Positions 18,920-59,901 of a DNA stretch of 64,000 nucleotides are shown here, in pieces (the stretch's first letter is position 1; each line of letters begins with the position of its first letter). The notes beneath the pieces were generated by a model that worked only from the letters and a program-made list of their open reading frames with translations, did not search any database and had not been told where the DNA came from. A program made the position numbers and the translations under genes. The DNA is from an uncultured bacterium (GTDB taxonomy: Bacteria; Bacteroidota; Bacteroidia; CAILMK01), in NCBI GenBank assembly GCA_903829945.1, contig CAIKRV010000059.1, forward strand, positions 5,897 to 69,896, written 5' to 3'.

Positions 18920-18943
18920 TAAAATTAAAAAATATTTTTTAAA

Positions 18944-19738
18944 CTAGTTTATTACTTTTGAAAACACTTCCAGAAATTCCGGCTGAATCAGACCGTTGGA
19001 TGCTACAATCTCACGACCATGCAAATAATCATGAGCTCCTTTAAAATCATTCACCCTTCCTCCTGCTTTTTCCACCAAATAGGCACCGGCCGCTACATCC
19101 CAAGGACTCAGTCCATATTCATAAAAGCCATCACATCTACCACAAGCTACATAGGCCAAATCCATCGCTGCCGAGCCAAGCCTTCTAAGTCCATGAGTTC
19201 TTTTCATAAATTCTTTCAGAATATCAATGTATGCATCAAGCCTGGATAAATCTACCACTGGAAATCCAGTAGCTAATAAAGAGTCCTCTAAATGTTGTGC
19301 ACCGGATACAGAAATTGGTTTGCCATTCATTGTTGCACCGGGCATCCCCTCATGGGCAATATAACATTCATCACTGTTTAATTCATAAATAATACCCAAT
19401 ACTGTTTTGGCATTAATTTGTAATGCCACACTTATACAATACATTGGAAGGCCGTGAACCAAATTGGTAGTTCCATCAATCGGATCAATAATCCACAGAA
19501 TCTCATTCGGTTCATGTTGATTGAAATTTTCTTCCGCTAAAAAATGAGAATTAGGTAATATTTTTTTAAATCCATTGACCAATCTCTCTTCTGAGCCTAA
19601 ATCAATAGAAGTAACAAGGCTACTATCAGCTTTGCTCATTACGTGCTTTATTTCCCAAGATAATCTTTCCTTTTTTATCCAAGCCGCAGTATTACGTACA
19701 ACCTTTTCTGCTTCATTGGCTATAAACAAATAATCCAT
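18944..19738 (-). CDS. suhB: Inositol monophosphatase family protein
   Basis: WIIDPIDGTTNL, RRLGSAAMDLAYVACGR, WDVAAG. Confidence 0.93.
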   Translation of the reverse strand: MDYLFIANEAEKVVRNTAAWIKKERLSWEIKHVMSKADSSLVTSIDLGSEERLVNGFKKILPNSHFLAEENFNQHEPNEILWIIDPIDGTTNLVHGLPMYCISVALQINAKTVLGIIYELNSDECYIAHEGMPGATMNGKPISVSGAQHLEDSLLATGFPVVDLSRLDAYIDILKEFMKRTHGLRRLGSAAMDLAYVACGRCDGFYEYGLSPWDVAAGAYLVEKAGGRVNDFKGAHDYLHGREIVASNGLIQPEFLEVFSKVIN

Positions 19739-26679: not shown

Positions 26680-27075
26680 TCAAGTATTGAGTTTTGGTAC
26701 AGAAATTTCTAAAGCATTAGTGGATATGTAAATTTCATAAATACATACCATTAATGAGAGCATTAAAAAACTCAAACTAATACCAAACATCCAAGCCGCA
26801 AATAATTTACTGTCGCCAAGAATGAATAGCATACTGATAATACTAAACACAAATGCAATGACGCAAATAAATTGAACAAATTTAATAATCTTCACGTGCT
26901 TTTGAAAAAGTTGTAATTGACACAATAAATTTTCATCCTTTTCATGACAGTATTTTTCATACAAATCACGAATGAGCTTAGTTAAAGTTAAAAACCTATT
27001 GGTATAGGCTAATAAGAATAATGAAACCGTACTAAATAATAGTCCGGGCGCGGTAAGTTGAATATCACTTGTCAT
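26680..27075 (-). CDS. DUF2721-like small membrane protein
   Basis: LTAPGLLFSTVSLFLLAYTNRFL N-terminus; three hydrophobic segments; EIYIS near the C-terminus. Confidence 0.82.
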   Translation of the reverse strand: MTSDIQLTAPGLLFSTVSLFLLAYTNRFLTLTKLIRDLYEKYCHEKDENLLCQLQLFQKHVKIIKFVQFICVIAFVFSIISMLFILGDSKLFAAWMFGISLSFLMLSLMVCIYEIYISTNALEISVPKLNT

Positions 27076-27087
27076 AATAAAAGCATT

Positions 27088-27126
27088 AAAAAAACAAAAC
27101 CCCCGACATGGCTGCCGGAGGTTTTG
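27088..27126 (-). terminator. Attenuator-type terminator in the DUF2721 leader
   Basis: Minus strand CAAAACCTCCGGC-AGCCAT-GTCGGGGGTTTTG (13 bp with two G:U pairs) followed by TTTTTTT, ending 12 nt before the DUF2721 ATG. Confidence 0.8.
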
Positions 27127-27150
27127 CTCTCTTTTGTGTGTGTAAAATAA

Positions 27151-27219
27151 TTACAAAGCAATATCCTTCGGCATAGTGTCCGTCTTACAATGACAATTAT
27201 GTTTCAGATATTGATTCAT
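27151..27219 (-). CDS. Putative 22-aa leader peptide MNQYLKHNCHCKTDTMPKDIAL
   Basis: ATG...TAA, 23 codons, read by hand; starts 4 nt after a perfect -7 element and precedes a terminator. Confidence 0.6.
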   Translation of the reverse strand: MNQYLKHNCHCKTDTMPKDIAL

Positions 27220-27223
27220 GCTG

Positions 27224-27231
27224 CAAAGATA
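27224..27231 (-). promoter_or_regulatory. -7 element (TATCTTTG) driving leader peptide/DUF2721
   Basis: TATCTTTG-CAGC-ATG. Confidence 0.7.
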
Positions 27232-27267
27232 TAACATCATTTTACTTATTTCAAAATAATATTTAAA

Positions 27268-29148
27268 TTAATCTTCAGTTTCCGTAACCAAAGCTGCTTC
27301 CATTTCTTCCAATAAATCTTTTTCAATTCTTAAATTGTCAATAATAAAACCTTGTCTTTCCGGAGTATTTTTACCCATATAATAACCCAGCGTTTTTTGG
27401 ATAGACATTTCTTGTCCTAATATTACCGGTTCTAAGCGAATATCATCCCCAATAAATCGACCAAATTCTTCAGGTGAAATTTCTCCCAAGCCTTTAAATC
27501 GTGTTATTTCAGGTTTACCTCCAAGCTTAAAAATGGCTTGTTGACGCTCTTCATCGGAATAACAATAAAAAGTTTGTTTTTTATCTCTTACCCTAAATAG
27601 CGGTGTTTGTAAAATATACAGATGTCCATTTCGAACAAGCTCCGGAAAGAATTGCAAAAAGAAGGTAAGCAATAACATTCTGATATGCATTCCATCCACA
27701 TCAGCATCCGTGGCAATGACAACTTGATTGTAACGAAGGGTTTCTAAACCTTCTTCAATATCCAATGCATGTTGCAACAAATTAAACTCCTCATTTTCAT
27801 AAACCACCTTTTTAGTTAAGCCAAAACAATTGAGTGGTTTTCCTCTCAGACTAAATACTGCTTGCGTTTCTACATTTCTGGATTTAGTAATTGATCCGCT
27901 GGCAGAATCACCCTCGGTTATAAATATAGTAGTATTATATCTTTTATCCTGATTGAGTTCGGTATAATGTACTCTGCAATCACGCAATTTTTTATTGTGT
28001 AAATTTGCTTTTTTAGCTCTTTCATTAGCAAGCTTTTTAATTCCTGCCATGTCTTTTCTCTCGCGTTCACTTTGTAAAATGCGTTTCAGCAATGCTTCAG
28101 CAACTGAGGCATTTCTATGTAGATAATCATCTAATTCCTTTTTTAAGAAATCATTAATATATCCGCGCATCGTTGGACCTTCCGGACCGAACATTTGTGA
28201 GCCTAATTTTGTTTTGGTTTGAGACTCAAAAACAGGCTCCTGAACACGAACACTGATGGCACCGATAATTGATTGTCGAACATCAGACGGATCAAAATCT
28301 TTTTTATAAAATTCTCTTAGGGTTTTTACCAATGCTTCACGGAAGGCTGCTAAATGCGTTCCTCCTTGAGTGGTGAATTGTCCATTGACAAAAGAATAAT
28401 ATTCTTCGCCATACTGTTCACCATGAGTAAATGCAATTTCAATATCCTCTGCTTTTAAATGAATAATTGGATAACGAATACTTTCTACATCTGCCTTTTT
28501 CCTCAAAAGATCTAACAAGCCATCTTTAGAAAAATACTTCTTGTTATTAAAATTTATGGTTAGGCCGGCATTTAAATAACAATAATTCCAAATTTGATTT
28601 TCAAGATATTCTACATTGAAACTAAAGTTTTTAAAAATACTTTCATCCGGAACAAAAGTGATGGCTGTTCCATTTTTCTCTTCAGTACTTTTAATTTTCT
28701 GATCTTCTATGAGTTCTCCTTTATCAAAGGAAACTACCTTGGTTTTCCCTTCCCGATAGGCATCTACTCTAAAATATTTTGATAAAGCATTTACGGCTTT
28801 AGTACCTACTCCATTTAATCCTACAGATTTTTGAAACGCTTTGCTATCATATTTAGCACCTGTATTTATTTGGGATACACATTCTATAACTTTACCCAAA
28901 GGAATTCCTCTACCAAAATCGCGCACAAATACCTTATGATCAGATATTTTAATATCAATTTGTTTGCCATATCCCATCACAAACTCATCAATACTATTGT
29001 CTATCACCTCTTTAACTAATACATAAATACCATCATCTTGTGAAGATCCATCACCTAACTTACCAATATACATCCCCGGACGTAGTCGTATATGTTCTCT
29101 CCAATCCAATGACCGGATGCTATCTTCATTATATGCGTGTTGTTCCAT
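27268..29148 (-). CDS. parE: DNA topoisomerase IV subunit B
   Basis: [76 protein letters not shown]; Bacteroidota ParE type. ATG 29148 preferred. Confidence 0.9.
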
Positions 29149-29266
29149 AGTTAAAATTTCCCAGGACAAAAATAATGGATTTTATGTGATTTAGAAAGGA
29201 AAGACTTTTATCCCTGAATTAAGTCATTTTTTAACCTATATTATCCTTTAAAAACATGAACATAGC

Positions 29267-59323: not shown

Positions 59324-59511
59324 TCTTGGGATTATAATTTTATAGATTTCAAGTTTGAGCAAACCTTTTCAACTTTTAGCCGGCACATTTGATTATTGCA
59401 TTTAATTGGAAACCAATTCAAACAATAAATTATACCGCCACTACAGTGTAAAAAGTAGCATTCTATCAAATATCGTGCAAAAGAATCTTTGCATAATATC
59501 TTAATACTACC

Positions 59512-59901
59512 TTAACAAGAAACTTGGGGTGGAGGACTCAGCGTTTTCAAAATAATAGATTCGGGAAAAATTGGCCTAATTTCTGAAAATTGTTCCTTCA
59601 CCACACGAAAAGAGATACTTGGAAGGAGCTTAAAAAAAGAAAAGAGGTTAAATCCTTTGGTAATTTTTACAACTATACCACCATCATAATTGTCTCTTTC
59701 CTCGTGTTCAGGAAATGCATTCGTATATCCTAAAATATTTTCGGCCACTAATTCAGTAATACTTTCAACATCATTAATCGCTAAATTTTCCGGCACATCA
59801 TCAGAATAAGTATCCGGGGCATCAATACTCAAATTGAGTATATGCAGCGCCATACACAGACAAAGAACACGATGTAAATATTTTGGCCGGAACAATTTCA
59901 T
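59512..59901 (-). CDS. Small hypothetical protein leading the czc-like operon
   Basis: 129 aa, N-terminal hydrophobic segment, NLSIDAPD, acidic ESITELVAE..EHEERD, C-terminal SPPP. Confidence 0.7.
   Translation of the reverse strand: MKLFRPKYLHRVLCLCMALHILNLSIDAPDTYSDDVPENLAINDVESITELVAENILGYTNAFPEHEERDNYDGGIVVKITKGFNLFSFFKLLPSISFRVVKEQFSEIRPIFPESIILKTLSPPPQVSC

Follow-up and report, generated by a model that had tools for sequence, protein, structure and literature searches.

The window analysed here was a 64,000-nt stretch of contig CAIKRV010000059.1 (assembly GCA_903829945.1, positions 5,897 to 69,896) from an uncultured Bacteroidota bacterium whose genome had a G+C content of 35% and whose DNA was present in lake and freshwater metagenomes. 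The element in question is a short leader, a candidate transcription attenuator, located on the minus strand between a topoisomerase IV subunit B gene (parE-like) and a gene encoding a DUF2721 protein. The upstream parE-like gene (27268..29169, minus strand) contained the Pfam domains DNA_gyraseB, Toprim and HATPase_c, and its Bacteroidota homologues bore the same name. Its product was 78-80% identical to proteins of Sphingobacteriales/Cytophagales and 86-91% identical to metagenome proteins. The downstream gene (26680..27075, minus strand), which is the putative regulated gene, coded for 131 amino acids with a DUF2721 domain (Pfam PF11026, E=2e-28). Between the two genes, a promoter, a leader of ~132-135 nt and a terminator were followed in that order by the DUF2721 gene. 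The initial annotation of this DNA had described a perfect -7 box, a 4-nt gap, a 22-codon open reading frame (ORF), a 13-bp hairpin with a U7 tail and, 12 nt later, the DUF2721 start codon, and all of these elements could be recovered at the coordinates given below.

Close relatives of the window DUF2721 protein were rare. Only two could be found among 5.8 billion clustered proteins, while all others were at most 44% identical. The first was a 99% identical strain (contigs L002 and L003) and the second a 73% identical sister lineage (contig L001, and again the long contig L085); a search using the sister-lineage DUF2721 protein as the query did not reveal further relatives. The sister-lineage ParE was 90% identical to that of the window. 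The gene order on L085 was parE, a 204-amino-acid gene, a broken small ORF, the leader, DUF2721, a convergent TonB-like gene, 3-hydroxyacyl-CoA dehydrogenase and pheS, which corresponds to the synteny of the window with an insertion after parE. The region between parE and the leader (L085:5881-7030) held a lipoprotein-like gene of 204 amino acids without a Pfam match and a frameshifted small membrane ORF; comparison with the corresponding window positions 27232-27268 indicates that ~1.1 kb was gained or lost in one lineage. A third relative, L087, with a ParE 86% identical to that of the window, carried no DUF2721 gene after parE.

This synteny bears on the simplest interpretation of the locus, in which the hairpin is an ordinary terminator that ends parE transcripts and insulates DUF2721, the ORF and the complementarity within the leader being coincidental. 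In the window lineage, no terminator belonging to parE precedes the leader promoter; the parE stop codon is located 12 nt ahead of the -33 element, and parE transcripts must therefore end at this hairpin. Distant DUF2721 loci likewise have plain gene-end terminators upstream, followed by a promoter. In the sister lineage, however, the parE stop codon is immediately followed by a hairpin terminator belonging to parE itself (AGTTGCCAACTTTTT/AAAAAGTTGGCAACT), more than 1 kb from the leader, and the promoter, leader and terminator are still kept before DUF2721. Since the sister parE has its own terminator and a gene lies in between, the leader hairpin is not simply the parE terminator, which removes an objection foreseen in the initial annotation. 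The module travels with DUF2721 into the sister lineage despite the insertion after parE, and the proposal that an unannotated leader with terminator/antiterminator logic belongs to DUF2721 rather than to parE thus held.

Two irregularities of the related contigs were observed. Gene callers lengthened the sister DUF2721 protein to 162 or 167 amino acids by using the ATG of the leader (L001:1174-1662, L085:7086-7589). The resulting N-terminal extension (MFNNTQEGAKPPAATPGVLFFNAICN...), which reads in frame through the terminator hairpin, was rejected as an artefact, and the true start aligns with the window ATG. The contigs of the 99% identical strain (L003:1-300, L002:1-45) diverged from the window within the last ~10 parE codons (window 27268-27300); L003 opens with a string resembling an Illumina adapter (CGCTCTTCCGATCT), which makes a chimeric origin of its first 300 nt probable.

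The leader is preceded by a predicted sigma-A promoter of the Bacteroidota type, for which the -33/-7 motif definition was taken from PMC7366714. The -7 box TATCTTTG (27231-27224, minus strand) fits the consensus TAnnTTTG and was identical in the sister lineage. A -33-like TTTG element could be read 20 nt upstream of the box (27255-27252, minus strand), and in the sister lineage TTG occurred 21 nt upstream of its -7 box. The motif TAnnTTTG was enriched 12-33 nt upstream of the start codons of the window genes, with 9/52 genes carrying it within 40 nt against ~1.5 expected, which indicates that the promoter rules of Bacteroidota hold for this genome. Only 4 nt (CAGC) separate the -7 box from an ATG at 27219. 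As the sigma-A box occupies positions -12 to -5 (PMC9723704), the transcription start is predicted to fall on the A of this ATG (27219, minus strand). The ATG opens the 22-codon ORF (MNQYLKHNCHCKTDTMPKDIAL*; 27151..27219, minus strand, TAA at 27153-27151), a putative upstream ORF (uORF) that would consequently be leaderless; the ORF caller extended it upstream to an ATG at 27240, ahead of the -7 box. At the other end of the leader, the A/U-rich stretch from the U-tract to the DUF2721 ATG was 12 nt long (27076..27087, minus strand) and its sister-lineage counterpart 15 nt, and TAnnTTTG could be read in neither, so that DUF2721 is expected to be transcribed solely by read-through. A promoter within the terminator was considered and rejected, since its GGTTTTG lacks the TA of TAnnTTTG.

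Elsewhere in the window, a TAnnTTTG box was found 4 nt and 8 nt before the first in-frame ATG of two minus-strand genes (18943-19738 and 59511-59901). These may represent leaderless or very short-leader mRNAs, or misplaced starts; if they are truly leaderless, this kind of initiation would be less unusual for the organism.

Analysis of the leader RNA revealed four segments that can pair in different combinations. Segment 1 (AUGAA.CAAUAUCU; 27206..27219, minus strand) was predicted by RNAalifold to be the 5' strand of a hairpin, P1, in which AUGAA.CAAUAUCU is paired with AGGAUAUUG.CUUUGU (columns 4-17 with 57-70 of the two-lineage alignment). The apical part of P1 contained a 10-nt block, UUGUAAGACG (27181..27190, minus strand), which was identical at 10/10 positions between the lineages and represents a candidate recognition site; its closing pairs are UGUC/GACA in the window but UCG/CGA in the sister lineage. 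Segment 2 (UGCCGAAGGAUAUUGCUUUGU; 27153..27173, minus strand) contributes its 3' part to P1 as the 3' strand, and the whole segment except the last 3 nt serves as the 5' strand of a predicted antiterminator. Segment 3 (AAGAGAGCAAAACCUCCGGCA; 27113..27133, minus strand) is the 5' arm of the terminator and can pair with either segment 2 (antiterminator) or segment 4 (terminator). Segment 4 (27088..27108, minus strand) comprises the terminator 3' arm and the U7 tract (T7 at 27094-27088). The terminator hairpin AAAACCTCCGGCA/TGTCGGGGGTTTT consisted of 13 bp, including two G-U pairs, and was lengthened to 20-21 bp by an A-tract and the U-tract; a G-U pair of its lower stem becomes A-U in the strain variant L003. 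Mutually exclusive anti-antiterminator, antiterminator and terminator helices, together with a U-tract, were thus found ahead of DUF2721 in both lineages. The pairing of the A-tract before the stem with the U-tract after it (27088-27133) makes the hairpin terminator-like on the plus strand as well (tail TTTTGCTCTCTTTTGTGTG), although no gene on the plus strand leads into it from there.

The antiterminator had been proposed from the complementarity of TGCCGAAGG (27173-27165) to CCTCCGGCA (27121-27113), and the match at 8/9 positions was confirmed exactly. An 8/9 match to the terminator 5' arm was reached in only 11/2000 (0.55%) dinucleotide shuffles of the leader, and is thus beyond chance. The duplex energy was -12.7 kcal/mol in the window, which 1% of the shuffles reached, and -12.8 kcal/mol at the same position in the sister lineage, reached by 1.9%. 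When the nascent RNA was folded up to the terminator loop, an extended antiterminator (UGCCG.AGG...UUGCUU with AAGCAA..CCU.CGGCA) was obtained in both lineages; the helix is therefore conserved, and longer than initially seen. This structure was the minimum-energy nascent fold before the 3' arm (-18.2 and -21.4 kcal/mol, compared to -13.3 and -17.0 kcal/mol for P1), and after addition of the 3' arm the terminator prevailed at -42 to -49 kcal/mol. The 14 antiterminator pairs were 95% paired across the alignment, compared to 33-55% with the partner slid; as these pairs are invariant, this indicates conservation and not covariation. The complete leader folded with z = -4.7, a value driven by the terminator, and a terminator scan of the 1-kb region gave two overlapping matches against 0.5 expected.

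Conservation of the leader is patchy and located on the RNA elements. From the transcription start to the U-tract, the two lineages, which are the only independent ones available for the comparison, were 73% identical with no indel in the first 80 columns, while the third codon positions of the DUF2721 coding sequence, used as a neutral benchmark, were 41% identical. Identity was 82% in segment 1, 33% in the 15 nt following it, 100% in the block UUGUAAGACG, 0% in the next 5 nt, 83% in segment 2, 68% in the spacer and 81-86% in the terminator arms. In P1, two pairs were changed on both sides yet still paired, one was changed on one side and none was broken. No RNA run was listed as holding this sequence, and informative variants in the leader could not be found in the lake DNA runs. 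An ordinary terminator would account neither for identities well above the neutral level, up to 100% in blocks, nor for an antiterminator this rare in shuffles, nor for the missing promoter after the terminator, and the ordinary-terminator interpretation introduced above was considered very unlikely.

The distribution of the leader was narrow. A covariance model of the leader run over the window, 80 DUF2721 loci and the loci of parE relatives retrieved only the copies already known, and a DNA-pattern scan of JGI metagenome contigs (GTAAGACG-N4-6-TATGCCG-N5-7-ATTGC) gave a sole match, by chance, inside a glycosyltransferase gene. Upstream of the leader promoter in the sister lineage (~60-200 nt, L085:6813-6970), interleaved inverted repeats were observed. 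One of their arms (ATATTACTATAAAGGTGTGATACCTTCGGCAT) has two distinct complementary arms upstream of it, and the pair GATGCCGGAGGTATC / GATACCTTCGGCATC resembles leader segments 2 and 3 (UAUGCCGAAGGAUAUUG / AACCUCCGGCAGC); these repeats could be a degenerate second switch or a duplication remnant.

As regards its architecture, the leader is probably a genuine attenuator of transcription, conserved and lineage-restricted, that serves DUF2721 specifically; we assign this a probability of roughly 75%. In the proposed mechanism, the sigma-A promoter would fire at or beside 27219 and the first 67 nt of the transcript would fold into the long irregular hairpin P1, acting as an anti-antiterminator. 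Segment 2 closely resembles the terminator 3' arm, and it can for this reason pair with segment 3 as the extended antiterminator. As long as P1 persists, the terminator (20-21 bp plus the U7 tract) would form and halt transcription 12 nt short of the DUF2721 start; once P1 has been opened or has lost the competition, the antiterminator would form and RNA polymerase would continue into DUF2721. The pairing alternatives and their conservation are observed features of the RNA, whereas the signal deciding between them is inferred. We tentatively favour, at somewhat less than even odds, a non-ribosomal sensor in which the switch is read at the P1 hairpin loop by a trans-acting factor or ligand. An RNA-binding protein, a small RNA (sRNA) or a small ligand may recognise the invariant loop UUGUAAGACG, and its binding would stabilise P1 and lead to termination. 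An invariant loop between unconstrained flanks appears better explained as an RNA recognition site.

Several observations weigh against such a loop-read sensor. The P1 hairpin by itself was no more stable than shuffled sequences (z = -0.7 and -1.2), and the register of its inner helices differed between the two lineages. Its covariation amounts to two pairs from two lineages, too few for any real statistical power. The analysis did not yield a candidate protein, sRNA or ligand for the leader. In the Rfam search of the region no family attained the gathering threshold, the best scores being 25.4 bits for ohsC (threshold 50), 23.5 for His_leader (49) and 22.8 for the rnk leader (55), with E ~0.5, and nothing reached a gathering score in the whole window either. 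A resemblance to the ACGR loops of guanidine-II riboswitches was rejected, as the loop reads ACGG in the window but ACGC in the sister lineage and was without an Rfam match. Further, in both lineages the start codon of the uORF falls precisely at segment 1 and its stop codon at the 3' end of segment 2 (6 nt further in the sister lineage), and the 66 nt of the uORF contain no indel, though one indel is present in the 19-nt spacer. Such a placement is exactly what a ribosome-read attenuator requires. Alternatively, the loop may be invariant on account of minor codons, since its UGU-AAG-ACG block holds AAG and ACG, which make up 24% of the Lys and 13% of the Thr codons, respectively.

These last points agree with the classical ribosome-mediated geometry that had been claimed for this leader, and they support a ribosome-mediated attenuator acting on the leaderless uORF. 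Here a 70S ribosome would start on the 5' AUG; on reaching the stop codon it would cover segment 2 and allow the terminator to form, while slowing in the first half of the uORF would keep segments 1 and 2 apart, so that the antiterminator forms and DUF2721 is transcribed. Folding was compatible with this scheme, since masking of nt 13-42 kept the antiterminator and masking of nt 46-80 abolished it. Leader-peptide attenuation has been reported in flavobacteria (PMC9723704), and leaderless uORF attenuators are present in mycobacteria (bioRxiv 10.1101/834739). However, leaderless mRNAs represent only 5.5% of the mRNAs in F. psychrophilum (PMC9723704), and in B. thetaiotaomicron 3.7% of mRNAs have a 5' untranslated region shorter than 10 nt (PMC7366714). 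A ribosome stalled at codons 11-13 would, moreover, itself reach the UGCCG of the antiterminator.

The codon-level comparison also argued against a sensing peptide. The uORF was kept in frame in the sister lineage as MKQFQSWKHRCKTRLMPDGIALYV*, but a constraint on the peptide was not supported. All changed codons (12/12) were nonsynonymous and none synonymous. Each of the 8/8 conserved non-Met residues retained the same codon, compared to 40% in the DUF2721 coding sequence (P=0.0007), which points to a constraint on nucleotides and not on amino acids. Differences per codon position were distributed 6:9:7 in the uORF against 34:19:77 in the DUF2721 coding sequence. Retention of the frame was at chance level, as the uORF stayed open through the 22 observed substitutions in 34-63% of simulations, and its length was not beyond chance either, as at least 22 open codons from a 5' ATG occurred in 22-27% of shuffled leaders. 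The leader-peptide reading of the switch is therefore weak. A ribosome sensing general translation speed or a hungry codon, rather than Cys/His supply, was considered possible though doubtful.

The initial annotation had gone further and suggested that Cys/His-tRNA supply, or a ligand or metal, is sensed through the nascent HNCHC motif. In the sister lineage this motif is replaced by WKHRC, in which both the Cys and the His residues drop from two to one, so that the codons proposed for control have not been preserved. The neighbourhoods of the 80 DUF2721 loci and the fold search revealed no link to Cys, His or metal, and DUF2721 has no link to amino-acid metabolism that would suit a ribosome-read switch. 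The Cys/His/metal reading thus found no support, and this specific form of the ribosome mechanism appears hardly credible.

The leader might alternatively be an independent sRNA gene, in which a ~132-nt RNA acts in trans via the invariant loop and DUF2721 is expressed by constitutive leakage of the terminator without a regulated switch. Its own promoter and strong Rho-independent terminator, the 10-nt invariant unpaired loop suited to a seed region and the lineage-restricted occurrence, which is common to many sRNAs, are in agreement with this, and Bacteroides are rich in 5'-derived and intergenic sRNAs (PMC7366714). The leader is, however, always located 12-15 nt ahead of DUF2721 with no promoter between, and a plain sRNA would have no use for an antiterminator that is conserved and exceeds chance. 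The covariance-model search gave no second copy elsewhere, and sites complementary to the loop were not clearly enriched in the window (five with one mismatch against 2.3 expected). An independent sRNA was accordingly judged unlikely. As a terminated leader can also act in trans, this reading is compatible with the attenuator as the best explanation.

Comparison with known systems revealed partial likeness to several classes. Classical leader-peptide attenuators (trp, his, thr, leu, pheA; His_leader and others in Rfam) share the four segments with exclusive 1:2, 2:3 and 3:4 helices, the intrinsic terminator with a U-tract just before the gene and the short ORF reaching from segment 1 to the end of segment 2. 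Unlike these, the present leader has no run of regulatory codons, its candidate codons are not conserved, its ORF would be leaderless, it precedes a membrane-protein gene instead of a biosynthetic operon, and it scored only 23.5 bits against the His_leader threshold of 49. Transcriptional OFF riboswitches share the promoter-proximal location, a P1 helix whose 3' strand also serves an antiterminator in competition with a terminator, an unpaired stretch within the P1 domain that is invariant, and covarying P1 pairs (here two pairs in two lineages). In contrast to them, the leader matched no known class and was restricted to two lineages, and its P1 domain is essentially a single irregular hairpin with a 10-nt loop, a simple design for an aptamer that binds a small molecule; the function of DUF2721 also suggests no ligand. 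Protein-dependent attenuators of the PyrR, TRAP, HutP and BglG/LicT types share a leader-hairpin sequence that a protein could bind to choose between terminator and antiterminator, whereas the present leader shows neither a repeated triplet motif nor an element like the ribonucleic antiterminator (RAT), and no candidate gene for an RNA-binding protein is adjacent. We know of no system of the PyrR, TRAP, HutP or BglG type described for Bacteroidota. The leaderless polycysteine uORF attenuators of mycobacteria (bioRxiv 10.1101/834739) likewise have a short ORF with Cys codons at the 5' end of the transcript, upstream of the gene; they differ in having runs of Cys codons and Cys-related operons, whereas the present leader has two separated Cys codons (one in the sister lineage), a terminator-based switch and an unrelated downstream gene.

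The DUF2721 family was further surveyed at 80 loci collected from GTDB genomes by a protein-guided scan, mostly from Anaerolineales and various Bacteroidota and all at most 44% identical to the window protein. The leader was not found in any of these 80 loci. Most of them had no terminator just upstream, and where one was present it belonged to the preceding gene and was followed by a promoter. No known riboswitch was detected by an Rfam scan of 40 DUF2721 loci, which indicates that DUF2721 is not tied to any known riboswitch class. The AlphaFold2 model of the window protein consisted of three long helices (mean predicted local distance difference test score, pLDDT, of 84), and a Foldseek search of this model against the PDB gave no match at E 0.001 or better. 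Neither the neighbourhoods, nor the known riboswitches, nor the predicted fold gave a hint of the suggested role of DUF2721 in sulfur, histidine or metal homeostasis. Clustering of the neighbouring genes revealed just a Pfam-less partner of 171 amino acids in Anaerolineales and LiaF-like neighbours in a few Bacteroidota. The former was a co-directional ORF of ~171 amino acids located 4-160 nt upstream of DUF2721 in 28/80 loci, mostly of Anaerolineales (L008, L009, L011-L013, L016, L018, L019 and others); this Chloroflexota ORF had no Pfam match and a C-terminus of the form ...PQF..MLLVNP..FGL, and is a possible conserved operon partner of DUF2721. The only DUF2721 paper found in the literature search concerned a formate-tolerance mutation in Shewanella SO_1320, and its authors call the function unknown.

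The reach of these results is limited, since only two lineages, both uncultured and from freshwater, carry the element, and DUF2721 genes elsewhere lack it. They also carry a caution for the annotation of leader peptides: a perfect fit of a short ORF to attenuator geometry can still be no more than chance would give, as a codon-level comparison with one sister lineage suffices to show. To our knowledge, only a few cis-regulatory RNAs other than the widespread riboswitches have been described in Bacteroidota. It is a long shot, though conceivable, that the leader is either a new ligand- or factor-sensing RNA of a riboswitch-like kind, with the UUGUAAGACG loop as its site, or the first leaderless leader-peptide attenuator described in Bacteroidota; in either case, the sensed signal would reveal the function of the DUF2721 membrane-protein family. 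A conditional terminator on one DUF2721 gene provides an experimental handle, and the condition that opens the switch would point to the role of the protein.

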